Of a DNA stretch of 64,000 nucleotides, positions 138 through 64,000 are shown piece after piece; the stretch's first letter is position 1, and every line of letters starts with the position of its first letter. The DNA is from a virus. Below the pieces are notes generated by a model. The model was not told where the DNA came from, did not search any database, and saw nothing but the letters and a program-made list of their open reading frames with translations. The stretch lies in the IMG/VR virus record IMGVR_UViG_3300042197_003184, positions 75,965 through 139,964 of that record. One strand, 5' to 3'. A program made the translations under genes and the position numbers.

Positions 138-3053
138 ATGAATGATCCTTTATTTTTAATACGTTTTAGTGCTGATGTTGGTGCCTACGACAGTTCTTAT
201 CCGCAAAAGGATTTGAGTAGTTATAATCTTGCTTTTAATGTAGGGCTCGGCAGATTCACCGAGGCTGCATCATTTAATGGACAAGACAGTCATGTTTTGA
301 TTCATGATTCATTGCCCGCTAACGATTACACTATAGAGATATGGTTCTATACTATAAGCAGTAACAATAAACACGTATTATATCAATATAATAATCAAAA
401 TAATTCTAAAACAGTTATTGTTTATGCTTATAATCAAAATTTATATGTTAGCATTAATAATGTAACTAAATTAATTTTACCTATTACCTATAATCAATGG
501 ACACACTTTGCGTTAGTTAAAAAGCCTGACCTTATTAAGTGTTACATACAGGGAATACCCGGTGACAATACCATACCGGACATCATTAATGATACCGAAA
601 TTAACATGATCATAGGTAATACTTTCGGGTTGGGCAATACAGCCAATAGCGATTTGTTTGGTTGGTACGGCTATATAGACGAAATCAGAGGAATGCCAGA
701 AATAGTATACATAAATGGAGGATTTCCTGTACCAACCGCCCCTTTTCCGGATGTGACCCCAAGTCCCATTCCAACGCCAACCAATAGCGAGACTCCAACT
801 AACACCCCCACCATTACGCCCACTGAAACTCCAACAGAAACTCCAACAGAAACTCCAACAGTAACGCCAACCGAGACCCCAACGGCAACGCCAACAGCAA
901 CTACGACAGTTACTCCGACTGAAACGCCAACTACTACTCCCACAGTAACTCCTACCACAACCCCAACCAATACTCCATCGATAACCCCAACCGAAACACC
1001 GACCAATACTCCAACAATAACGCCAACTGAGACCCCAACGGTTACGCCGACCAATACTCCAACAATAACGCCAACTGAGACCCCAACGGTTACGCCGACT
1101 AATACTCCAACAATAACGCCAACTGAGACCCCAACGGTTACGCCGACTAATACTCCAACAGTAACGCCAACTGAGACCCCAACGGTTACGCCGACTAATA
1201 CTCCAACAATAACGCCAACTGAGACCCCAACGGTTACGCCGACTAATACTCCAACAGTAACGCCAACCAAGACACCCACAAATACACCAACAACAACACC
1301 CACTACGACCCCCACAAATACTTCTACTCAAACACCGTGGTACACGCCGAGCACAACCCCCACAAACAGTCCGACTAACACCACGACTCCAACACCAACT
1401 GTTTCTTCTACAGCTACAGCTACCCCAACAGTATCGGTGTCGGTATCGTGTTCTGCGACCCCTTCTGCAACAGTTACTCCAACAGAAACCCCGACACCTA
1501 CGGCTACTCATACCCCTGTTGTTTCCGTAACTCCTACCCAGACTCCTTCCCCAACAGCAACAGCAACAAATACTCCTCAACCAACAGCAACACCAACAAA
1601 AACAGTCACCGCCACACCAACCAATACGCGTACACAGCCCATATCTGGTACTCCAACACAAACTCCAAACCCAACATCCACACCCACATCGACTCCCACT
1701 GTTTCTCCTACAGCTACTAGCACGCCCACTAAGACAGCCACACCCACCAGAACGCCATCAAGAACACCCAAACCCACCAGGGCTATTGTCACGAAACCCA
1801 AACTAAAGGGCTTGGGCACTAAAAACAACCCTGTTATTGTTAATACCTTAAATAAAGACGAAATTATTACATTCTTTCCTAATCTCAATGGAGAAATCAA
1901 ATATACTTCTGATATTTCTGGGGCTGTCATTGCTGCCAAAAAGAATGGCTTGGTTATAGCTTTAACAACCCCCACTCCTACGCCAACATCCACAAAAACA
2001 CCGACACCAACCGCGACACCGACCAGAACAGCCACTTCTACTGTTACTCGTACGGTAACGCCAACAGTTTCTTCCACCCCTTCCAATACCCCAACAACAT
2101 CCGTAACTGCGACCCCAACAACTACAGTAACCAACACACCGTCTACCACTAATACCCCCACTGTAACCCCATCATTAACATCAACAGCTACGCCAACACC
2201 GTCTATTAGTCCGACAACAACAGTCACGGCAACACCAACATCCACAACATTTCGGACACCTACACCAACAACAACGGTCACTGTATCTAGTACTCCCACC
2301 ACCACAGTTAGCGCTACGCCTACCGTAACACCCACCCCAACTACCACCGCCACCCCCACCTGTTCCGTAAGTCAATCAATAGGATATATACCTTCCCCCC
2401 AAAACATACCACCTACGGCAACTATAACTCCCACCACTACGGTTACAGAAACCATAACACCCACCGTTACTACAACACTTACTGTCACGCCAACAGTTAG
2501 TATTACAACCAGTAATACAGAAACGCCATACCCAACCGCCACACCAACGCCTACTATTACCACAACCAATACAACAACCCCAACAAGAACCGCTATTGCT
2601 ACACCCACCCCAACCGGCACCGCATACGAAACGCCAACCCCCACCCAGACAGTATCCTCAACCCCAACCGCTACCCTAACCTCAACAGCAACAATTACGC
2701 CGACACCCAGTATCACAGAATCTCAAACCCCAACTCCTTCGCCGACCAATACTCGCACCGCAACTCCCACCCCAACAAGCACCACTACCGGATCAACGAC
2801 TCCCACGCCGACCAAAACACCAAGACCAGGAACAAATACAGGTCCTGGATGTGCATTATTTGTTACAACAAGAGATCAGATACAGATTTATTTAGATGAG
2901 TCATTCACAGGAGAAAGCTCTAGCGGAGAGATTAAGATATGGATAGAACCAAAAGTTAGTTGCAATTCTATTCCTAACAGAAGGGGTTTTTCTCCGCCAC
3001 CCACCCCAACATCACAATCTTCTCAAACTAATTCATCACCATCTACGAGTTGA
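138..3053 (+). CDS. LamG/ConA-like domain protein with very long Pro/Thr (mucin-like) repeats; putative virion fibre/adhesin
   Basis: N-terminal LamG motifs ([25 protein letters not shown]) followed by long TPT repeat tracts; a second globular segment is interrupted by PT repeats. Confidence 0.75.
999..1267 (+). repeat. 48-bp tandem repeat, about 5.5 copies, encoding [15 protein letters not shown](I/V)
   Basis: Unit cgccaactgagaccccaacggttacgccgacYaatactccaacaRtaa starts at 1021, 1069, 1117, 1165 and 1213. Confidence 0.9.
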
Positions 3054-51724: not shown

Positions 51725-54379
51725 TTACCAAGTGGTACAGATGAACCCTTTCGAAACCAGGCTTTCGGCTTTTCCCGTTGCTGCTCCGCAGTCTGGAAAA
51801 AACTCGTTTGGATTGTTCTTCATGAATTCTAGATTAGTAGCATTGTAGCTAGTAATTTTATCTATAGTTGCGATTTTAATAGGGGTAGCATCTGGGCTGT
51901 TGGGATTGTTACATTGTTTAGGAATACTATGGGCACCGCAACTGATAGGACCAGAATCGCAAGCATAAGAAGATCCACCAACAGACACAGAATACCATAC
52001 TTTGCACATATCACACTCGTCACCAATTTTTTCATAAGTATCATAGACCGTATCATAGTACGAGTTGAGGGCTGGAGCTATAACTATACCATCTCGTTTA
52101 ATTTCTGGAGATAATTGTTTTGTTTTACTTATGTCTTTGATGGGTTTAAATTTACTAATAATTAACACATCTCCTGGTTGAATCTGTTTCTGAGCTGCTG
52201 CTTTAGCCTCATTGTAACTTGCAAACAAGTTTTTAGACGGATCGGCTATTTCTCCACATGTTCTTGGTCTCTCTATGATAGTGACCTGTTGTATAGTAAC
52301 AGCATTGGCGGAGGTAGGAGCGGGACATGCCGCTAGACCCATGTGTACATCTTCTGATAATTGAATTGATATTGATTGATTACAGGCTTTAGCCGAGGAA
52401 CCACCATTAGACAACACAAAAATAGTAGCTTTGGGACTATTGCAACACAGAGGACCGTCGCATTCGGCACCGCATTTATCTCCTTTAAAATAACAATCAG
52501 CATACTCTCCAGCACTTACTCCAAATAAACAGCCGCTATCAACATACGCAGGAAGATCGCATGTTGTTGGAATAGCAGGAATGGAGTAGGAGTATTTTGG
52601 ACTTAAAGACGCCCCTTCCAATTGAGAGCCGTTGGTCAATGAACATTCACACGAAGATCCTGGCTTACCAGTATATGATTTTATGTACCAGTCACAATTC
52701 TTTTCTTCTTTCATCGGACCAACAGAACCGCTGTAAGTTTGTCCGTTTCTTTGGCATATGCAATTGTATTGTGGGCTTGCTCCTTTGTTTATGTCTTGTT
52801 CTTTGTCGGAATAGTCTATTGCAACTCCGCCGCTACCAGATGTTCGTTTATCTAAAGTGGATATTTCTATAAGAGGTCCATGTTTACATTGTATGCGTTT
52901 CTTAAAATATCTTTTAGCACATGTATATGCTTGCACCGGTTTGTTTCTCCACCAAATAACAGCGCCTACCACACCAGCAGCTATCAAACCAACCACTACT
53001 GTAGCTCCAACAGCTACCCAATTAACCCCTGGTCTTAGAGGTGGTTGCGGTGATGAACCACCGCTCCCGCCCATCATCGCCCTTAAAGCCGCCGATGCTG
53101 TGCGAACACTTTTAAAAACCCAATTGCCGTTACCGTCGGAATATGCAGGCGGAGCAGGTCTATCATATGGCCTAAGATGGGGAGATATGTCGCCAGTTAA
53201 GGGTAGTCCGCTGAATGAAGCCAACACGAATCCTCCTGAACCATCGGCAGTAACCGGAGCATAAACCACCATAGGATCTTTACAACCACAAAGTTCGTCA
53301 TCATCAGATGTGGCCAAGGTGGGTTCTCCTGGACCGTCTTCGTAGCTATTAGGATCACAATCAGCGCCCTGAATATTTCCAATTGTCCAGTCTCCATTCG
53401 AACAACTAGCCAAACCCCCATCACATACTGTTTCTGGATCTAAACAGCATACAAAATTTGTTGTTTTTATGACTGTTTGCGTGTCCCAGATTTCGATTCT
53501 TTTTGTTGGTATCGTTCCTATTTTATCATTAGTTTTTATAGTTACATCAGTATCGCTACTATTAAAATTACAAGCATTAGCAGAAACACACTCATTTAAA
53601 GAAGCATAATTAGCAAGACCATCATGAAAAAAATCATCATAAGGAACACATTCCCGATATTTCAATACTGTGTTACAACCAACGGAGGATTCGTTGGTAA
53701 TTTTGGCGTATCCTGCGGTTTGAATACTTATATTTTGAGTTTGGGTAGGCAACACAATATTTGGTAATGTATCATCTTCTAAAAACACATCTAAAGGATC
53801 ATTATTTATATTTTGAGCTACACTGTTTCTTGCAGAAATGCCTTGACCAGAATTTATTGTATCGGCCATTTCGGCATCAATCAAAGGATCGAAGGTTGCG
53901 GCTTCGTCAGTAACGGCCATACTGTCTATAATATCAACTGCTGTTTCTGATGTGCCGGTATTAGCAATACTAACACTTGATACATTATTATTAGTAGTGT
54001 TTTGTATAGACAATAAGCCAGTAGAGTCCACCAACAACACCCCACCAACCTCTGCCGATAGCACATCTCCGTCCTCTGTTAATAGCAGGTTATCTAAATC
54101 TATTAAAGTAACTTCTAGTCTATATATTTCATTAAAAAATGAAGACGATATATTTTCTAAAGTAAGAGTATCTAGATCTGGTCCAGCAGTTATATAGGTG
54201 CTGCCACCATCCCTAGAAACCAACCAATTATAACTGTAAAAATAGTTATTATTGTCACTATAGCTTATTGTGTTCTCTATATATTGAGTAGCTTGGAAAA
54301 CAACAGTATCTCCAGGCAAAGGGTCTTTTGGTGACTGAGTAACAGTAACAACTATATTATTAGAGAGTAAAATATTCAT
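51725..54379 (-). CDS. Large Cys-rich protein with N-terminal Ig-like domain and internal hydrophobic helix
   Basis: YSYNW...YRLEVT Ig; LLTEDGDVL motif; dozens of Cys; WVAVGATVVVGLIAAGVVGAVIWW. Confidence 0.65.
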   Translation of the reverse strand: MNILLSNNIVVTVTQSPKDPLPGDTVVFQATQYIENTISYSDNNNYFYSYNWLVSRDGGSTYITAGPDLDTLTLENISSSFFNEIYRLEVTLIDLDNLLLTEDGDVLSAEVGGVLLVDSTGLLSIQNTTNNNVSSVSIANTGTSETAVDIIDSMAVTDEAATFDPLIDAEMADTINSGQGISARNSVAQNINNDPLDVFLEDDTLPNIVLPTQTQNISIQTAGYAKITNESSVGCNTVLKYRECVPYDDFFHDGLANYASLNECVSANACNFNSSDTDVTIKTNDKIGTIPTKRIEIWDTQTVIKTTNFVCCLDPETVCDGGLASCSNGDWTIGNIQGADCDPNSYEDGPGEPTLATSDDDELCGCKDPMVVYAPVTADGSGGFVLASFSGLPLTGDISPHLRPYDRPAPPAYSDGNGNWVFKSVRTASAALRAMMGGSGGSSPQPPLRPGVNWVAVGATVVVGLIAAGVVGAVIWWRNKPVQAYTCAKRYFKKRIQCKHGPLIEISTLDKRTSGSGGVAIDYSDKEQDINKGASPQYNCICQRNGQTYSGSVGPMKEEKNCDWYIKSYTGKPGSSCECSLTNGSQLEGASLSPKYSYSIPAIPTTCDLPAYVDSGCLFGVSAGEYADCYFKGDKCGAECDGPLCCNSPKATIFVLSNGGSSAKACNQSISIQLSEDVHMGLAACPAPTSANAVTIQQVTIIERPRTCGEIADPSKNLFASYNEAKAAAQKQIQPGDVLIISKFKPIKDISKTKQLSPEIKRDGIVIAPALNSYYDTVYDTYEKIGDECDMCKVWYSVSVGGSSYACDSGPISCGAHSIPKQCNNPNSPDATPIKIATIDKITSYNATNLEFMKNNPNEFFPDCGAATGKAESLVSKGFICTTW

Positions 54380-57300
54380 ATTAAATTCACCGGTACTGTT
54401 ATAGTATCCACCCCATTCTTTACTACGACCCTATATCTATATAAGGAATATGAACTCTTTCTAAGATTACGAATACCAACAGCACTTGACGTAGCGCCAA
54501 CAATATTGCTATATGAATATCCTCTATTAGATGACTGCTGCCACTGATAAGTTAGTGTTCCTGTTGTAGTACTAGCATTTATCTGGAAAGTCAGATCAAT
54601 ATATTCTACACCAGAAACGGTTTTGTTGGTCATGTTAATAGATATTGGGGCATAACTAATGGTCGGTAATATTGTCAATTTGGCGGCTCGGGATATGGCG
54701 CTAAATGTTCCGACGGACATTACAACTCTATAATAATAGTTATTATTACTTCTAGTTAAATTATTAATAGATAATACGGACTGTTTGGCATTGGCAATAT
54801 TGTACCAGGTTCTGTTATTGGAGGAATATTGCCATTGATATGTTAAGGGAGTGCTAGAACTTAGTACGTTATTATGGTTAGCTGTAACGCTGAATATTAC
54901 AGAATTAGAGCTTACTGTTTTATCTATGGGTTGGGACGTTATATCAATTGAAGGAACAGCAATTAATTTGACACCATTTGATACAAAAGTTTCATTTCTG
55001 TTTTTGAGCACTACTCTGTAGTAGGTATTGTTTTGACTATAAGAAACGACACCTACAACAAGATCCGCACTATTAGCTTTAGCAATATTAGAATATGTTC
55101 TATTGTTTGATGAGACTTGCCACTGATATGATAATGAACCATCTGAAGAACTAGCCCTTATGCTATAAGTAGCCTTACCTCCTATCGATTGTTGTTGTGT
55201 TGGAAAACTAGACACAGCAATGGTTGGCAGTACGGTTAGCACAGACGGTTGGCTGTATTTAGTAATGGCACCAGAAGAACTTATACTCAATCTATAATAT
55301 CTGTTATGATATAACAGAGAAGGCTTTTTAATAACCAATGTATTAGTTCCTGTGCCACCATATTCTGTACCATCAGCAATATTGGAATATGATAGTCCGT
55401 TATTGGCACTAACCTGCCAACGATAAATAATAGTATTTTTACTAGTACTATAAGCCGTAGCGTCCATCGATACTGCCACATTAGTAGTGGTTAATCTATT
55501 GCCAGGATGTTTAGCAAAATATAGCACGTTGCGTACAAAATACTTATCGTTTGGTGTTAATCCTCTTAATAGTTTTGACATATTTTTCCAAAAACGATCA
55601 CTTAATGATATTTCCTCTGTGATAGCATTAATAGCCGATGATCCATCAGCAGCATTAACAGCATTAGACAACATAGTACGAGATATGCCGTATGGCTTCA
55701 TAACAAGATCGTATCCTGCTATTTTGCTACCTCTGATGGTTCCTTTCCATCCAGCATATTTGGCATCTTTGGGTGTTTTTTTATGTTCTATTAATGATTT
55801 GAGTATCCAATATAAAGCACCCCCTATTTTAGCTTTGCCTTTATATGATAATGTTGAGTTCCATCTGATATATAACAGATACCATACTCTATTTGCCCAG
55901 GTTCCACTACCTGGCTTATATATAATATCCAGCATATTACCAATATTGACTGTTTGTTGACTAGCTAGTTGAGGTAAACACTGTTCGCTATGATAAAAGA
56001 TTGTTGAACCGGGCTTCGCAGAAACTATAGAGGTTTCAGTTCCTGCTATGTTTTCACTTAAAAATTGAAAATCGGTTGATACCCCAGTGTTTAGTACCGA
56101 ATCGGCCATATTTTGAATATACCTAATGGGAGATTTATTGGTATATCTAGAGGTGGGATATACGGGGACGACATCTGAAAGCAGGCTCATTTTACCAACA
56201 GCAATATTCCAAATAACCCATTCGCTAGTCAATAAGCCCCCACCTTTAGTAACAAAATCTTTTAAAGCTTGTTGCCCCGCAGCTGGAATGGTCGCACTAC
56301 TCCAATTATAATTATTTTGCAATATAACCACATTAGTAGATGCTAAGATATTATTTGAGTTTGTAAAAGTGTTCATATCTATGATGGATATGGTTTTATT
56401 GGTTGTGCTAGCTATAGCATTTTTCAAAGCGTTGTCTTGCGTGGTTTTACCACTGCTAAAAATAATGATGGAAGGATTGCTTTGATTCTTATATAACCAT
56501 TTAACTGAATTTTTTAATAATTGAACATAGTTAGTATTGGTAAGATTTTTGGCTCCTGCCGTAGTAGAAAAAGATAAACATCTTCCACTAAAATAATTCC
56601 ATCCTGTAACCCCCGCGTATGTACAGCTACTCAGGGTCAATGATGTAGAAGGTACTGCTGTGGATTTATCGAAAGAGTTTGGTGTTCCGGTATACCTGAT
56701 ACCGTTTTTTTCTACCCAAATATCTGTTAAAGCTGTTGGTCCAGATGATGCTCCGGCACCAAATTTTGAATCACAAACAACTTTGTAAGATTCTCCATTT
56801 TCGTACTTTAGATAAAACAACACTATTGGTCCAGACGCTTGGTTGTCGTCCAAGGAAGCTAACGCTCCTCTACTGGAGGCTATATTCATATGCGGATCGC
56901 CCCAGATAGATGTACTATTATAAAGCTTGTCTGTTAGAGGTAAATCTATTTCATTTATAAGCGTAGCGGCTTGGCTGGTAATTGATCCAGAATCTGACGA
57001 TACAATTACTCTATATTGAAACTGATTTTTATCTTCTGGATTTTCTATATTATTGATAAAGAGATTAGCACTATCTGTAAAAGGCAAATTAACAAAAGTG
57101 GTACCGTCAAGAGATTCTTGCCATTGATACGACAATGGTTCGCTACTAACTAATGAAACCGCTGACACAGAAAATAATGGAGATGTTGTTGCCAAATCTG
57201 TTAAAACATAATCAGATGGATGGTTAGTAATATTTATTGGTGGACCTATAAAGTCTAGATTGGCAGTATTAGAATAAGCAACTACAGGCAACTTGTCATA

Positions 57301-57780
57301 GAAATAGGCTGTAATTCTTACCCTATACGCAGTATTGTCATCTGCTGCATCAATGTCATTAAGCAGTAGGTTGGTCTGATTGGCTCCTGGTATGGCCTCA
57401 AAAGAAGATGGACTACTGGAACGTGCTATTTCCCACTGATACAATACCTGCGCCCCATTAGAAGCATCAACAGCAACGCTAAATATAGCGCTATTACCAT
57501 TATCGGCATCGACTACCTGATCAATTGGTTGACTGGTAATATTTAATTCTGGTATAGCAATCAATCTTGCTGGTTTAGATATAACACTAGAACTCCCCGA
57601 AGTCGCTATGACCCTATAATAGTGATTATGTTGTTCTGCAAGCACATTAGATATGGTCAAAGAAGAACCATTTGGCGCAGAAGACAGGTTCGTGAATGTG
57701 GTGGCGTTATCGACTGATACTTGCCATTGGTAATTAATTGTGTTCGTTGATATAGAAGTGTCTAGTGGTGAATTATTCAT
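54376..57780 (-). CDS. Multi-Ig-like fibre protein with WGDPH domain and inserted GATase1-like domain
   Basis: Seven YQW/YRW Ig repeats, the first lacking its leading strands; IWGDPH; ALKDFVTKGGGL. Confidence 0.75.
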   Translation of the reverse strand: MNNSPLDTSISTNTINYQWQVSVDNATTFTNLSSAPNGSSLTISNVLAEQHNHYYRVIATSGSSSVISKPARLIAIPELNITSQPIDQVVDADNGNSAIFSVAVDASNGAQVLYQWEIARSSSPSSFEAIPGANQTNLLLNDIDAADDNTAYRVRITAYFYDKLPVVAYSNTANLDFIGPPINITNHPSDYVLTDLATTSPLFSVSAVSLVSSEPLSYQWQESLDGTTFVNLPFTDSANLFINNIENPEDKNQFQYRVIVSSDSGSITSQAATLINEIDLPLTDKLYNSTSIWGDPHMNIASSRGALASLDDNQASGPIVLFYLKYENGESYKVVCDSKFGAGASSGPTALTDIWVEKNGIRYTGTPNSFDKSTAVPSTSLTLSSCTYAGVTGWNYFSGRCLSFSTTAGAKNLTNTNYVQLLKNSVKWLYKNQSNPSIIIFSSGKTTQDNALKNAIASTTNKTISIIDMNTFTNSNNILASTNVVILQNNYNWSSATIPAAGQQALKDFVTKGGGLLTSEWVIWNIAVGKMSLLSDVVPVYPTSRYTNKSPIRYIQNMADSVLNTGVSTDFQFLSENIAGTETSIVSAKPGSTIFYHSEQCLPQLASQQTVNIGNMLDIIYKPGSGTWANRVWYLLYIRWNSTLSYKGKAKIGGALYWILKSLIEHKKTPKDAKYAGWKGTIRGSKIAGYDLVMKPYGISRTMLSNAVNAADGSSAINAITEEISLSDRFWKNMSKLLRGLTPNDKYFVRNVLYFAKHPGNRLTTTNVAVSMDATAYSTSKNTIIYRWQVSANNGLSYSNIADGTEYGGTGTNTLVIKKPSLLYHNRYYRLSISSSGAITKYSQPSVLTVLPTIAVSSFPTQQQSIGGKATYSIRASSSDGSLSYQWQVSSNNRTYSNIAKANSADLVVGVVSYSQNNTYYRVVLKNRNETFVSNGVKLIAVPSIDITSQPIDKTVSSNSVIFSVTANHNNVLSSSTPLTYQWQYSSNNRTWYNIANAKQSVLSINNLTRSNNNYYYRVVMSVGTFSAISRAAKLTILPTISYAPISINMTNKTVSGVEYIDLTFQINASTTTGTLTYQWQQSSNRGYSYSNIVGATSSAVGIRNLRKSSYSLYRYRVVVKNGVDTITVPVNLI

Positions 57781-57785
57781 TGTAA

Positions 57786-60700
57786 TTACCCTATCATGGG
57801 GGCTCCGAGCCTAATCTTGTACGGTCCAAAAGTAAGAGTATTGGGTATCCACGAAGCAGCTACTTCGACATATGCATCCACATCATATGTTTGACCACCC
57901 CATGCTTCGAAATTATATTTGTATATTATGCGATAAGGATATGTGTTCAAGCATTCTTTCAATTTGTTTGTTGTGGAGTATGCCATTATATTAGATGTTC
58001 CGCTCCAATATGTCTGGGTTGGTAAGCTTTTGAATCTTTGGAGTATGGGATCATAGTATCTGGCATTAATAACATTGATGGTATTTGAGCCAGAATAGTT
58101 GCCATCTAGATGCGTTATGAATGAACAATCTTTATAGTATGATGATAAAGGATTCAATTTCATTTGGAGGTCTATTTGTGTGGTCCACCATCCATAGGTA
58201 CCGCCAGAACTAGTTAACAAAGGACCGCTGCTAGATGCTATTCCAGATATGGGAAGCTGTGGTGATGGGGTTGGAGTTCTAGTTTTTGTTGGTGTGACTG
58301 TCGGTATAATTAGTTTGGTGGCTGTAGGAGTTTTAGTTGGAGTGCTAGTGATAGTGTTGGTTGGGGTAATGGTGGGCGTTATACTAATGGTTGGCGTAAT
58401 AGTAGGAGTTGCGGTTCTGGTCGGGGTAATCGAAGAGGTTGGGCTTGGCGTACTAGTATTGGTTGGTGTTTGTGTGTTGGTTGGAGTTCTGGTTGGTGTT
58501 ATGGATGGAGTTTGAGAGACTGTTGGTGTTATTGTCGGTGTTAAGGTTAACGTGGGAGTAGGTGTTGGAAAAATAGTGTCTAACGAAACAGTAAATGTCA
58601 CACTTCCATTAGTTCCTATGGTCTGGTCTGTTGGTTGACTTACAATAGATAAAGAAGGCCCTAGCACTGTTAATAGTGCAGTATTGCTTGTTACGGAACC
58701 AAAAGCGTTGGTGAGTTTTACTCTATAGAAAACATTGTTATCTAATGTGGTCAAGTCATCTAGAGTTAGATAGGAGCCGTTAGAGTTAGGAATAGCTGTC
58801 CAAGATGTACCATTGACAGATTTTTCCCACTGGTATATAGCATAAAATGGTCCGCCGACTACCTCAAATATTGCCGCCCCATCTCCTATTGGTTTTTGTG
58901 TAGTGGTTGTATCTGTTGGCTGTATAGTAATATACGGAGGAATCGGAGAAGCTGTTGGTGTTTGTGTTCTGGTAGGCGTTATGGTGGGTGTTGCTGTGGG
59001 GGTGCGTGTGGGTGTTTTAGTTGGAGTAACAGTTGATGTTTTGGTTGGACTGGGTGTTGGTGTTGGTGTTACTAAAATGCTATTTAGTATAGCTATAGAT
59101 TTTGGTTGTAATCCTACTGTGAGAGTTTTGAGATACGTATTAGTTTCAATAGCATATACGTCTACTATAGTTGAATCTGAATATAGTATATATCCAAAAG
59201 ATCCGTTGTCTGTTATGCCTATAACATAAGGAACGAATTGATTATTAGTGCTAAAAGAGGTTAATACGGCATTTGTGTCGGCATCTATGACCACCACGGT
59301 TTTGCTATTAGAACATACAACATAAATATCTCCGCTATATCTATTGACCGTAATATCTGAGATTCCGTTATGGCTAGAGCTAAGAATAATATTGGTTATC
59401 AGCGATGGTGCGCCAGAAGATATGTCATAAACAGATATCGTATTATTAGAAAGAGCAATATATAATCTATTATTTTCTATATTAAGAAAACTAGTTTTGT
59501 ATGAATGACTTAGTGCATTCGAATATAACAATGACGTTAGATCTGCTGAAAATACATATAAATTTGATATGTCAAAAACATACAGTTGGTTGTTATGAAA
59601 CAACACTTTTCGAATATCTGTTCCGGCATATGTGTAGTATATTATGCTGGGGGTACTGGTATTAGAAAATAATCTAACAATATCTGATGGCTGAGAAGAG
59701 GAAGGAGACGAACAGACATATAATTCCGTGTCTGTATCATTGAGTTCCAGATACTTAATATTAGTATCAGATCCTAAATTTAAGGTTCTAGAGGACCTAT
59801 CATAATTAGAGGCATCTATTAAGACTATATCGGTGGAGTCTTCTGTTGCAACATAAACTACGGACTCGTTTTGATTAGTGGTAAGCTGTGTTGGCTTTGT
59901 AATATTGTTGAGAGTATTTAAGACTGTTTGATTAACGGTGTGTAAAATTGTAATACTATTAGAGCCATAATTAGCAATATACGCTCTTGAAATAGTTGGG
60001 TCTGATGGTGTCGGAGTTACGGTTGGTGTTCTGGTGTTTGTGGGTGTTGTGGTCGGGGTTCTGGTTGGCGTAACTGTAGGTGTGCTCGTTGGTGTGGGCG
60101 TTATGGTTGGAGTAGGGGTTTTAGTGGGTGTTGTAGTGGGTGTTGTGGTTGGGGTTTTAGTTGGTGTGGGTGTTGGTGTAGCAGGAATAACGTAGTCGCA
60201 GTTACATCCACTAGAAGCTATACAAATATTATCAATAGCGGCACCGTAACAACCACAAGATGGGCATGTGCTTTCAAATCTAATTATGGTGCTGCTACTG
60301 ACGGCGGTAAAGGACTGGCTAGCGAATAACCACCCCATAGCATTATAGTCCCCAAAGTATCCAAGATATTGAGTCACATCAAAACTATAATTTTGCGTAC
60401 TATATACCGTATTATTTAAGGCATTAATAATTTTAACAGTAAATGTTTTTATTGGATTGTCTAGATTGGTTTTATGAGAATAATTATTTGCCGCATAATT
60501 AAATCTTAAATTATATACAGTACCGGATACTGTATTGATGGTTTGCTGCAAATATCCCGACGTACAACCATTCAAGTCTACTGCGTAATGATTATCTGTA
60601 GTCCCGAATTGCCATAAATCAATATCAGACGACAACCATCCGTTTGTTGTTCCTACGGGTTGGCTAAAATTACCGTTGGTTATCAAGCAACCAGCTCGTG

Positions 60701-62156
60701 TTTGTGTCGGGGTGGCGGTTGGTGTGCGAGTAGCAGTTATTGATGGTGTTACCGTATTGGTTGGAGTAACTGTTGATGTGGGAGTGTTGGTTGGGGTCAG
60801 TGTGTTGGTCGGTGTGATGGTGGGTGTGGGGGTGCTGGTTACAGTAGGAGTAATTGTGGGAGTTATAGAAGGCGTAGGAGATGGCAATACTCCTACAGCA
60901 AAACCTATGGCCACAGGATTTTGACCAACACTAACACGAGCTTTAATATTGGGGTCAACACCAGTAGCTTGACCATCCAATACAATAATATTATCTCCAA
61001 TATTATTTACTAAAAATACATTGTCATTATCATCAGACTCTATTTCAGAAAAATTAGCAGCATTCAGTATATTGGTATATTCTGCCAACACAGCACTATT
61101 TGTTTTGTCTATAATTTGTAGTTTGGCTGGACCAGACACGTTAGACAAATTTAGTTTTTGTGCAAAAATATTATCTTTATCGAATCCTACTGTTGTGTTT
61201 TCTGTTGTGTCTATTTCTATAAGAGAATAAGTATTATTATCAGCTATTATTCGCGATAACTTACTGTTATTGACTGAAACATTAGATACCAACCCATTTA
61301 TTCCTGTTTCTATATCATATGGTTGATAAACAACATAGACCTTGTTGTCTTTGTCTTTTTTCAGTTGTATAGGATTTTGATTCAAGGATAGTACGGTGTC
61401 TATGTACCATGTTAGTTCGTATTTCTTAATGGCTGTGAGAGTTTTTTGTGGGGTGTTACAGACATAGGTTGTGTGGGATTCGTAATCTACTATGATTTGA
61501 TTAGCTCCGGAAGCAACGTCCACTGTATGAACTATTTCGTCAATGGTTGTATCTATGATATAAACTTTATTATTGTAATGATTTAAAACATATCCATGAT
61601 TAGTTAGCGGGTCGATGTCAATTGATACTGTACCATTACCCGTAGAAATTTCTTTGATAATGGTGTGTGTTAGCGTGTCTATTACACACATATTTTTAGA
61701 GTCATTTGTTACATAAATTTTATTATTGTAGCCAATAACATCGGTAGGATTACCATCCACCTGAATTCGACCATATTCTTTGAATAGGTTATTTAATAAT
61801 GGGAGTATTGTTTGTGTTGGTGTCGGAGTAGGTGTGGGATTAATATAATCAACTATGTGTGTGACCGATTGAGACAATCCTATATTTTTAGCATCAATAG
61901 AGTTGGTATCTGTTGGTGATACGGTAATAGTGTATGTCTCTCCATTATTTAATGGAATACTCCAAGATTTAGTTGTGGTGTTTTGACCAATAAAGTCAGA
62001 TAAACCCAAAAAGTATGTTCCGTGAGGTCCACTAAACGATGTCGATAGTATTCGCACACTATAGTATTTATGCAACGGGTCTGCAAAATCCCACGAGATT
62101 AGAGTTCTATTGTTGATAGTTGGGTGGTTGTAAACAACCAGATTAGTGATATTCAT
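57786..62156 (-). CDS. Fibre protein: two YVTN-like beta-propellers, galactose-binding-like domain, Ig, PT linkers
   Basis: IYVTN/AYIANY...V.VID blades; LITNGNF...VDLNG...YGAAIDNI; one full Ig and one Ig N-fragment. Confidence 0.75.
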   Translation of the reverse strand: MNITNLVVYNHPTINNRTLISWDFADPLHKYYSVRILSTSFSGPHGTYFLGLSDFIGQNTTTKSWSIPLNNGETYTITVSPTDTNSIDAKNIGLSQSVTHIVDYINPTPTPTPTQTILPLLNNLFKEYGRIQVDGNPTDVIGYNNKIYVTNDSKNMCVIDTLTHTIIKEISTGNGTVSIDIDPLTNHGYVLNHYNNKVYIIDTTIDEIVHTVDVASGANQIIVDYESHTTYVCNTPQKTLTAIKKYELTWYIDTVLSLNQNPIQLKKDKDNKVYVVYQPYDIETGINGLVSNVSVNNSKLSRIIADNNTYSLIEIDTTENTTVGFDKDNIFAQKLNLSNVSGPAKLQIIDKTNSAVLAEYTNILNAANFSEIESDDNDNVFLVNNIGDNIIVLDGQATGVDPNIKARVSVGQNPVAIGFAVGVLPSPTPSITPTITPTVTSTPTPTITPTNTLTPTNTPTSTVTPTNTVTPSITATRTPTATPTQTRAGCLITNGNFSQPVGTTNGWLSSDIDLWQFGTTDNHYAVDLNGCTSGYLQQTINTVSGTVYNLRFNYAANNYSHKTNLDNPIKTFTVKIINALNNTVYSTQNYSFDVTQYLGYFGDYNAMGWLFASQSFTAVSSSTIIRFESTCPSCGCYGAAIDNICIASSGCNCDYVIPATPTPTPTKTPTTTPTTTPTKTPTPTITPTPTSTPTVTPTRTPTTTPTNTRTPTVTPTPSDPTISRAYIANYGSNSITILHTVNQTVLNTLNNITKPTQLTTNQNESVVYVATEDSTDIVLIDASNYDRSSRTLNLGSDTNIKYLELNDTDTELYVCSSPSSSQPSDIVRLFSNTSTPSIIYYTYAGTDIRKVLFHNNQLYVFDISNLYVFSADLTSLLYSNALSHSYKTSFLNIENNRLYIALSNNTISVYDISSGAPSLITNIILSSSHNGISDITVNRYSGDIYVVCSNSKTVVVIDADTNAVLTSFSTNNQFVPYVIGITDNGSFGYILYSDSTIVDVYAIETNTYLKTLTVGLQPKSIAILNSILVTPTPTPSPTKTSTVTPTKTPTRTPTATPTITPTRTQTPTASPIPPYITIQPTDTTTTQKPIGDGAAIFEVVGGPFYAIYQWEKSVNGTSWTAIPNSNGSYLTLDDLTTLDNNVFYRVKLTNAFGSVTSNTALLTVLGPSLSIVSQPTDQTIGTNGSVTFTVSLDTIFPTPTPTLTLTPTITPTVSQTPSITPTRTPTNTQTPTNTSTPSPTSSITPTRTATPTITPTISITPTITPTNTITSTPTKTPTATKLIIPTVTPTKTRTPTPSPQLPISGIASSSGPLLTSSGGTYGWWTTQIDLQMKLNPLSSYYKDCSFITHLDGNYSGSNTINVINARYYDPILQRFKSLPTQTYWSGTSNIMAYSTTNKLKECLNTYPYRIIYKYNFEAWGGQTYDVDAYVEVAASWIPNTLTFGPYKIRLGAPMIG

Positions 62157-62181: not shown

Positions 62182-63300
62182 CTATGAACCAAGACACAAT
62201 AACGAATGAAAGGATCCGCAGCCAACAACATTCCAGTTGGTGGTATTTGCTGGACTTTCTAATTTGGTAATATTGATACTATTACCCGTGGCGGTTCTGC
62301 CCAGTTGACCCAAAGAATTATTACCAAAAGAGTATACTTCTCCGTTGATGTTTGTTAGCAAGGCATGTTCTCTACCACAAGCTAATCTAAGCCAGTTTTG
62401 ACTTTCATCAATCGTTACCAATTCATTAGAATCTGGATAAAATGTAGGTAAATTATTAGTTATATTTTGATAGGAGTATCTGATACCATACGCCCCAATA
62501 GAAGTATATGCTTGAGAAGGATAAGAGGTCGGAATTATGGTGTTGGGGTTTGCCGAATTTTGGGTTAGATTATGAGTGTAGCCCTTAAATGTATATCCAT
62601 ATAATTTTCCGTCTTGTTTAATTGCTAATAAAAACTGATTTCCAATATCTAAAGATATATAATAACTATTATTTGAATTAGGCACTATGCCTGTAGCAGT
62701 ATTGATAGAGCTTGGGGTATAGATGCCATTGGCGGTAACAAAATCATAGGTTCCTCTTACATATATTGCTCCAAGCCTAGCAGCAGCACAGCATGTTGGA
62801 CCAGCAGCAATTAAAGTAGAGCCCTGAAAGTCTGCAATTTGCGTAGGTGTAGTTAGGAAGTTGGAAGTTAGGCCAGAGATGGTTTTATATGTATTATCTC
62901 CTGTCCCAAATACCAAACTATTATAGGTAAGAAATAAACTATAATCACTAGAAGCCGCTATCTGAGCAACAGATCCTGTCATTGTTACTAGAGACGGTGT
63001 GGTAATATTGCCTCCGGTACTAGAACCACATTGACCCAAGGTGTTTTTGCCCCAAGCATAAACTGCTCCGTTACTTTTTAACGCTAAGGAGTGATAGTCT
63101 CCACACGCGACATCAATCCAGTCCGTTGCTGTACCTATGCGTGTTGGCGATGTCTTATTGACCAGTGTACCATCTCCTAGTTGTCCATTGGCATTTAATC
63201 CCCAAGAGTATAGCTCACCAGAAGAAGTAATCGCTAATGAGTGACCATATCCTCCCGACACTTTGGTAACATTTGATAAATTTAAACTAGAAAGTGGCAT
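62182..63300 (-). CDS. RCC1/BLIP-II repeat beta-propeller protein
   Basis: HSLA...G.LYSWG.N..GQLG repeats. Confidence 0.88.
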   Translation of the reverse strand: MPLSSLNLSNVTKVSGGYGHSLAITSSGELYSWGLNANGQLGDGTLVNKTSPTRIGTATDWIDVACGDYHSLALKSNGAVYAWGKNTLGQCGSSTGGNITTPSLVTMTGSVAQIAASSDYSLFLTYNSLVFGTGDNTYKTISGLTSNFLTTPTQIADFQGSTLIAAGPTCCAAARLGAIYVRGTYDFVTANGIYTPSSINTATGIVPNSNNSYYISLDIGNQFLLAIKQDGKLYGYTFKGYTHNLTQNSANPNTIIPTSYPSQAYTSIGAYGIRYSYQNITNNLPTFYPDSNELVTIDESQNWLRLACGREHALLTNINGEVYSFGNNSLGQLGRTATGNSINITKLESPANTTNWNVVGCGSFHSLLCLGS

Positions 63301-63311
63301 GACTGTTCTCC

Positions 63312-64000
63312 TTATGAAGTTGAGTGTAGAGTTCCAGAGCCTTGCTGATCAAACAAGGACTGTTGTGTTGAATGTAAAGAGCCATTACCTCGCTGATCTA
63401 ACGAGAATTGTTGTGTCGAGCTTAAGTCTCCTGAGCCTCGTTGATCCAACTCTGTTTGTTGAGTTGAATGAGTAGAACCCGTACCTCTAGAATCCAATAA
63501 TGATTCTTGTGTGCTATATAGTCCAGACTGAACAACAATATTAGCAGATGGTGTGGGTGTGGATGTTGGTGCCGGGGTTTCAGTTTGAGTTGGTGTGGGC
63601 GTAGATGTTGGAATTGAAGAAACAGACCCTACTTGGGCTATACCTATAATACTAATATCTCCACTGTCATAATTAGCTACATATGCTATAGACGATAATC
63701 CTGATGTGGGTGTTGGTGTAACTGTTGGGGTTTCGGTTGGGGTTACTGTGGACGTGGCAGATGGGGTGTTTAGGGGCTCTTCATTAACCGGTGTTACTGA
63801 TGGAGTATTGGTTGGTGTTTCTGTGGGAGTTTCAGTTGGGGTAACCGTTGGTGTTTCGGTCGGTGTTACTGTGGGAGTTTCAGTTGGGGTTACTGATGGA
63901 GTATTGGTTGGTGTTTCTGTGGGAGTTTCAGTTGGGGTTACTGATGGAGTATTGGTTGGTGTTTCTGTGGGAGTTTCAGTTGGGGTAACCGTTGGTGTTT
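63312..64000 (-). CDS. 3' part of a PT-repeat fibre protein (start lies outside the window)
   Basis: Frame is open from 63998 to the stop at 63312: PT repeats, AYVANYDSGDISII, then 16-aa STQQ repeats. Confidence 0.75.
   Translation of the reverse strand, partial: TPTVTPTETPTETPTNTPSVTPTETPTETPTNTPSVTPTETPTVTPTETPTVTPTETPTETPTNTPSVTPVNEEPLNTPSATSTVTPTETPTVTPTPTSGLSSIAYVANYDSGDISIIGIAQVGSVSSIPTSTPTPTQTETPAPTSTPTPSANIVVQSGLYSTQESLLDSRGTGSTHSTQQTELDQRGSGDLSSTQQFSLDQRGNGSLHSTQQSLFDQQGSGTLHSTS
63797..64000. repeat. 48-bp-based tandem repeats encoding [16 protein letters not shown]
   Basis: gtattggttggtgtttctgtgggagtttcagttgggg recurs at about 63805, 63901 and 63949. Confidence 0.8.

Follow-up and report, generated by a model that had tools for sequence, protein, structure and literature searches.

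We analysed a window of 64,000 nucleotides, the last 64 kb of the 139,964-bp IMG/VR record IMGVR_UViG_3300042197_003184, which represents an uncultured phage of about 140 kb. The genes of the window lie on the minus strand nearly throughout and are tightly packed, and many of them have matches to phage structural families in Pfam and PHROG scans. At the junction between two large genes of this cluster, here called A and B, the gene boundary falls inside an immunoglobulin-like (Ig) domain: gene A carries its first two strands and gene B opens with the rest. The features of the junction, taken from a list of open reading frames (ORFs) and their translations, are collected in Table 1.

Table 1. 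Features at and around the junction of genes A and B, in window coordinates.
Feature	Coordinates	Strand	Description
Gene A	57786-62156	minus	1456 aa (ORF list and translation)
Last intact Ig-like (I-set type) domain of gene A	58662..58910	minus	About residues 1083-1165; in alignment A4, full-length match to the family's remaining intact Ig domains
Half-Ig of gene A	58575..58661	minus	Strands A and B only; residues 1166-1194, LGPSLSIVSQPTDQTIGTNGSVTFTVSLDT
TAGACACT, copy 1	58575-58582	minus	Leu-Asp-Thr of the gene A trailer
Pro/Thr-rich linker of gene A	58260..58574	minus	Residues 1195-1299, 105 residues (translation)
Orphan C-terminal (cargo) domain of gene A	57789..58259	minus	Residues 1300-1456, 157 residues; stop codon 57786-57788
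Spacer, gene A stop to gene B start	57781..57785	minus	5 nt; genes A and B in different frames
Gene B	54376..57780	minus	1134 aa; start reads MNNSPLDTSISTNTINYQWQ (translation)
Gene B leader	57733..57780	minus	MNNSPLDTSISTNTIN; free end of the broken B-C loop
TAGACACT, copy 2	57757-57764	minus	Leu-Asp-Thr of the gene B leader
Partial Ig of gene B	57550..57732	minus	Strands C to G, residues 17-77; begins at the YQWQ motif

Gene A begins with an FN3-like N-terminus and YVTN-type beta-propeller-like repeats, both recognised by eye, and continues with a DUF642-like domain (Pfam, residues 520-646), a second propeller-like region, one intact Ig-like domain, the half-Ig, the Pro/Thr linker and the orphan C-terminal domain. 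Gene B consists of a 16-residue leader, an Ig domain without strands A and B, then two intact Ig domains, a central domain that is conserved and some 480 residues long, and four more Ig-like domains; its Ig repeats match head and Hoc-like decoration families in PHROG. Inside the half-Ig of gene A lies a 25-residue core, GPSLSIVSQPTDQTIGTNGSVTFTV. The linker sets in a few residues past strand B, at the place where gene A of most relatives simply stops.

The two fragments fit together as parts of a single domain. We used 25 intact Ig domains of the family to build a profile hidden Markov model (HMM) of 98 positions. The gene A fragment occupies positions 6-31 of the profile and the head of gene B positions 32-97, and the two halves joined score 77.7 bits. 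In alignment A4 the fragments likewise fall on strands A-B and C-G of the intact domains, with no overlap and no gap beyond the B-C loop. Since this tiling (6-31 by gene A, about 32-97 by gene B) is repeated in every related locus, it is certainly more than chance. Within the gene B family the Y-x-W-Q and Y-R-V motifs show little or no variation. I-set Ig domains are beta-sandwiches of seven to nine strands; both their conserved strand C Trp and their strand F Tyr-x-(Arg/Cys) motif are present, and at 19 loci, the window included, the domain is not contained whole in one polypeptide. The initial annotation of this DNA had read gene A as carrying only the first strands of this Ig domain, followed by a Pro/Thr linker and a terminal domain, and gene B as opening with the missing remainder; translation and profile positions agree with it on both counts, and its view of one Ig domain shared out between two genes is borne out by the tiling in all related loci.

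The relatives show that this state is the rule. Homologs of gene B were retrieved with its specific central domain as the query. The 27 proteins found show 44-89% identity and are 1107-1176 aa long, and all 27 have a leader of 3-35 residues that leads directly into the Y-x-W-Q C strand; a truncated first Ig is the normal state of the gene B family. Surrounding DNA was taken for 18 related loci (L001-L005 and L018-L029; L006-L017 were excluded as Ig-repeat matches only). At each of the 18 the upstream gene is an ortholog of gene A that bears the matching half-Ig, always as a separate gene, and with the window counted the half-Ig and the partial Ig are adjacent and in the same order in 19 of 19 loci. 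It had been allowed initially that the second gene might normally start in this way without a partner. The start pattern is indeed the normal one, but the partner half is always present, and this strengthens the split-domain reading. A fused A-B form was found neither among the 27 homologs of near-equal length nor among proteins of 1986-5000 aa, the latter search being weak evidence.

Several forms of the split can be told apart. In 12 loci (L003 and L019-L029), which we term direct splits, gene A stops 3-13 residues past strand B and gene B starts 1-14 nt further on or overlaps it by 4 nt. Thus gene A of L021 ends '...TVTFNIQITNS*' (asterisk, stop) and gene B then reads 'MNNTKDTSAQVFPVIYKWQ', while L026 has '...ATFTVSLN*' and then 'MSNPIF...'. 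A short Pro/Thr linker follows the half-Ig in L018, L004 and L005, and gene A then stops. The window and L001 have the Pro/Thr linker and the 157-residue domain, and in L002 the Pro/Thr linker leads to another domain, about 330 residues long. Among the loci the gap from A to B ranges from -14 to +58 nt, with a frame offset of 0, 1 or 2. The A-B core of gene A is exactly 25 residues long, without insertions or deletions and with a mean pairwise identity of 52% (13 loci measured), and the C-G core of gene B is exactly 61 residues long, again without insertions or deletions, at a mean identity of 56% (14 loci). Outside these cores lengths vary freely, from 3 to 13 residues in the gene A trailer and from 3 to 35 in the gene B leader. 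The leader consists of Met-Ile-Asn only in L018 and L005, where gene B is therefore unable to complete its own fold. In two loci, L002 (6628-6700, PPPPPPP) and L026 (419-520, PPAPPGPPGPPPPPPPPPPP), a polyproline leader stands ahead of the C strand, which suggests a stiff spacer at the split loop.

We thus observe directly a split that is conserved, in exact register, with variable cargo and with no fused form among the sampled relatives. Because 12 loci free of any insert are still split, and because no fused form was found, these comparisons indicate that the split is probably old and conserved and not a recent insertion. Nor is the half-Ig a decaying remnant, since its length and similarity have been kept across lineages in which gene B falls to 44% identity. 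Searches of other collections returned little: the phage collection, searched at nucleotide and protein level, gave no megablast match and only weak Ig-repeat matches in cyanophages, and the idea of a T4-like cyanophage was dropped. Among viral contigs, single-sequence scans that took the cargo domain or gene B as query yielded no relatives, the profile scan finding two true loci besides the Ig-repeat noise L006-L017.

The material behind the half-Ig is more variable. The Pro/Thr linker is absent from the 12 direct-split loci. Linker and terminal domain are thus an addition, as the initial annotation had it, and many relatives do without them. At the DNA level the beginning of the linker is homologous in the window, L002 and L018. 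The orphan 157-residue domain is common to the window and L001 only; among 1.84 billion representative proteins it has no relative beyond one 100%-identical entry, probably the same gene, and it has neither a paralog in the genome nor a Pfam match. A protein-language-model search with this domain (57789-58259, minus) pointed weakly to the small C-terminal tips of RHS/YD-shell proteins, at scores of 0.90-0.92 and with few shared features; the 139 that accompany the score of 0.92 are below the level typical of true relatives, and we do not rely on this likeness. The extension domain of L002 (L002:5640-6638, about 330 residues) carries an HExxH motif (THELGHALG), and its match to leishmanolysin (Peptidase_M8, E = 0.0022) stays below threshold; this is a weak indication that this cargo may be a metalloprotease-like domain. 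L018 (6840-7001) and, likewise arranged, L004 and L005 have no cargo: a short Pro/Thr linker closes gene A, and a 58-nt non-coding gap and a Met-Ile-Asn leader follow; this looks like the deletion of a former cargo domain together with most of the leader.

The structure of the rejoined domain was predicted with AlphaFold2. In two loci, L021 (L021:4626-4634) and L028 (L028:3313-3321), gene A ends with a TAA that shares its frame with the gene B ATG 3 nt away, which made it possible to build a read-through construct; elsewhere the frames are different. It comprised 109 residues, the two L021 halves with TAA read as Gly. With alignment A4 it was predicted as one Ig domain, with a mean predicted local distance difference test score (pLDDT) of 91.1 and a predicted template modelling score (pTM) of 0.83; the A-half lay at 85-96 and the junction loop was low, at about 61. 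As a control we used alignment A6, which has no rows over the A-half; its best model had the same strands (pLDDT 85.4, pTM 0.78, A-half 76-88). The MAFFT alignments A2, A3 and A5 had been discarded for misplaced half-domain rows. Foldseek placed the A4 model among I-set Ig domains, with the phage N4 capsid decoration protein as the top match, followed by contactins, Robo and titin (query TM-scores 0.6-0.72; E values of 3e-5 and higher; 139 matches at E <= 0.001). The prediction proposed initially for the two fragments thus came out as one Ig domain for the halves of this ortholog, folded as a single chain. These models indicate that the halves are compatible with one fold; they are not evidence of binding between two chains.

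The explanation that we somewhat favour is a conserved, probably ancient split in which the A-B hairpin of protein A completes the first Ig of protein B and so joins two fibre or adhesin segments non-covalently. Gene A would contribute strands A-B, with the 25-residue core, and gene B strands C-G, the cut lying in the B-C loop. The two would be translated as separate chains, probably with translational coupling, as the short or overlapping junctions suggest. The hairpin of protein A would then most likely slot into the incomplete N-terminal sandwich of protein B, and the rebuilt I-set-type Ig would link the two segments without a covalent bond. Both chain ends would leave the rebuilt domain at the B-C loop, so that this loop could bear extra material. 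Since the two ends meet there, the linker would leave the fold undisturbed, and this geometry would also explain why different kinds of cargo hang at exactly that point. In the clade of the window, gene A would run from the loop via the Pro/Thr linker to a swappable C-terminal cargo. That the halves pair in trans, and that their pairing acts as the joint between proteins A and B, is what we infer.

Several points weigh against this explanation. The AlphaFold2 test concerned a single artificial chain of the ortholog L021, the pair in the window itself being out of frame. Alignment A4 contained intact domains able to guide the fold, and the other four of the five control models were only moderately confident (70.5-75.9). 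The half-Ig of protein A could pack in cis or serve another partner. Proteins A and B are no more than putative virion components, judged by their neighbourhood and by PHROG family names. Finally, the direction of change, whether the extension was gained or lost, is resolved only weakly, given a midpoint root and long branches.

One alternative is that the halves do not pair: the A-B segment would have another role or pack on the preceding Ig of protein A, the first Ig of protein B would be completed by another protein or tolerated open, and the adjacency of the two would reflect common descent from one gene. The single-chain nature of the AlphaFold2 result leaves room for this. A useless remnant should decay, yet the segment keeps its exact length and 52% identity (the part in gene B, 56%) where gene B as a whole retains only 44%. 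In none of the 19 loci are the pieces found apart or in the reverse order, and an Ig sandwich that lacks two strands exposes its core and needs a partner. On this evidence we regard unpaired halves as unlikely.

A second alternative concerns the origin of the split only, and is compatible with present docking by complementation. Here a cassette of linker, domain, stop and restart would have entered the B-C loop of the family ancestor, most lineages would have lost the cargo and kept the stop and restart, and the modern 8-bp repeat described below would be coincidental. A maximum-likelihood tree of gene B, midpoint-rooted and with some long branches, bears on this. In it the window, L001 and L002 form one clade (support 100) in which all members have the Pro/Thr extension, with two unrelated cargo domains; L018 lies elsewhere, beside the direct-split L026, and the remaining large clades are direct splits. 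Extensions in two separate parts of the tree, with homologous linker beginnings, are what an ancestral cassette would leave behind, and L018, with its linker alone, its non-coding gap and its three-residue leader, resembles a remnant of one. The homology of the linkers is, however, equally explicable by lateral exchange of the extension, and with L026 beside L018 parsimony slightly favours the direct split as the ancestral state (two gains versus at least three losses). An ancient cassette as the source of the split thus appears rather improbable.

Far less probable is a recent event of the kind put forward in the initial annotation, in which an 818-bp element carrying linker, domain, stop and restart entered a continuous A-B gene, duplicated 8 bp and left the split as a young accident. 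The repeat itself is real: TAGACACT lies at both ends of the segment in the same codon phase, as had been stated. Each copy starts at codon position 2, and the minus strand of the window holds no third one. Deletion of the 818 bp also gives an in-frame product, which scores 83.6 bits as one domain with the Ig HMM. The accompanying argument from the spacing between F and YQW is weak, as this spacing ranges over 13-18 residues among the intact domains of gene B. In trials with random in-frame coding segments of the window, the frequency of an in-phase shared 8-mer ran from 1.3% for 30 x 48 nt up to 4.6% for 75 x 60 nt, so that the repeat is only weakly above chance; inside the same 1,051 nt, twelve different 8-mers recur that have one or more copies outside the linker DNA.

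The relatives argue against such a scar. The closest of them, L001, shares the whole extension collinearly with the window at 73.5% nucleotide identity over 1,514 nt, so the insert is not young, and L001, with TAGATACA at one site and CAGACGTA at the other, does not have the repeat. Residues of orthologous trailers and leaders account for the two copies in the window: the gene A trailer reads SLN* in L026, SLNVV in L002 and GLDIV in L018 opposite copy 1, and the gene B leader of L021, where gene A ends ITNS*, reads KDTS and shares Asp-Thr-Ser with copy 2. Related genomes that lack the 818 bp, which the initial annotation had suggested looking for, exist as the 12 direct-split loci; none of them is continuous and none has the 8-mer arrangement. 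Nor does the insert bring the stop and the restart, as had been supposed, because a stop after the half-Ig and a separate start of gene B are already present in those 12 loci. Apart from the terminal part of gene A and the opening codons of gene B, the segment contains no ORF; we found no terminal inverted repeats at its ends and no mobility gene, the only long ORF on the coding strand being the gene A end, whose terminal domain has no Pfam match. A transposon with target duplication was rejected on these grounds, with no empty continuous site, no inverted repeats and no mobility gene. The recent-insertion explanation is thus largely refuted already. Judged from these comparisons, the repeat is most likely a coincidence of two Leu-Asp-Thr tripeptides, and what the window has in addition is a stretch of about 783 bp (approximately 58572-57789) that extends gene A in frame at its C-terminal end, stop and restart not included.

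Production of one fused protein by recoding, through a frameshift, stop read-through or a bypass of the T4 gene 60 type with the 8-mers as take-off and landing sites, is hardly credible: the in-frame stops and starts of L021 and L028, 3 nt apart, and the matching sequence at both sites in the window would suit it, but the loci share no conserved geometry (offsets of 0, 1 and 2, gaps from -14 to +58 nt), inspection by eye shows no codon pair match that they have in common, the window has no stop after the supposed take-off site, and a bypass of 818 nt would far exceed the 50 nt of T4 gene 60. A split intein was also considered and rejected, as Pfam detects no Hint-type family in gene A.

Some further features of gene B and its surroundings were noted. 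The central domain (residues 285-770; window 55471-56928, minus) is strongly conserved in 28 sequences, in which the W-G-D-P-H motif and numerous Gly, Trp and Cys residues never vary, and its sole family match is a weak one to a ThuA-like Pfam entry (E = 0.021). In the Ig-like domain that comes next (55240-55551, minus; residues ~744-847), the 'ITSQP' motif normally seen in strand A is missing and the start reads ...HPGNRLTTTNVAVSMDA; the central domain may lend it a first strand. At its other end gene B overlaps the next gene, C, by ATGA (54376-54379). This boundary lies between Ig domains, as B finishes after a short last strand and C opens with a complete Ig, which shows that not all gene junctions in the cluster cut a domain. 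On the other side of gene A, an RCC1-repeat propeller gene (372 aa) in the region 62182-63998 (minus) follows another ORF that runs off the end of the record. At the far end of the window ARAGORN predicts a tRNA-Pro with anticodon AGG (2930-3010, minus) within a long plus-strand ORF (138-3053), in a region of unusually strong negative GC skew.

The closest functional parallel is found in chaperone-usher pili, where an incomplete Ig-like subunit is completed by a beta-strand of its neighbour, giving a very stable non-covalent joint in an extracellular fibre. As in these pili, an Ig-like fold would be incomplete in one subunit, the first domain of gene B covering only positions 32-97 of 98, and would receive strand material from a neighbour. 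The details differ. Pilins miss one strand (G), which is donated by an N-terminal extension, whereas here strands A and B would come from the C-terminal region of protein A; the partners are two different large multidomain phage proteins and not repeated pilins; and the donor hairpin can be internal, with a linker and cargo behind it. Pfam and PHROG scans of genes A, B and C and their neighbours found no pilin, chaperone or usher family. By analogy, the joint between A and B would work like donor-strand complementation but is no member of that system.

Among phage proteins, the nearest relatives by fold and sequence signature are the Ig domains of T4 Hoc-like and N4 capsid decoration proteins. 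To our knowledge each of these is encoded whole within one protein, whereas the domain described here is split, and a literature search, which was not exhaustive, turned up no account of phage fibres with split Ig domains. Division of one ancestral protein into two adjacent genes is familiar from T4-type phages, where mobile elements have split genes such as those of topoisomerase gp39/gp60 and the nrd genes next to homing endonuclease genes, and where the products of the adjacent parts reassemble. There, however, a mobile endonuclease gene or a bypass element is involved; no such gene lies between the halves of the Ig domain, and in most relatives nothing lies between them.

Fragments of this kind are treated as noise by gene callers and domain annotators, and the present locus illustrates that short flanking repeats can mimic insertion scars. 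We would give about even chances to the broader proposition that a widespread group of large uncultured phages uses two-strand Ig complementation to join one fibre or adhesin protein to the next, with the B-C loop as a port for interchangeable cargo tethered by Pro/Thr linkers. Pairing of the halves, if real, would explain why boundaries between genes of this cluster cut domains, and it would provide a simple sequence rule for recognising fibre-protein partners, namely complementary domain fragments. The split loop would then be a naturally tolerant site of cargo exchange, which could be useful for the engineering of phage fibres. If the halves do pair, phages would possess their own version of the strand-complementation joints of pili, used to bolt together very large multidomain fibre proteins from separate genes.

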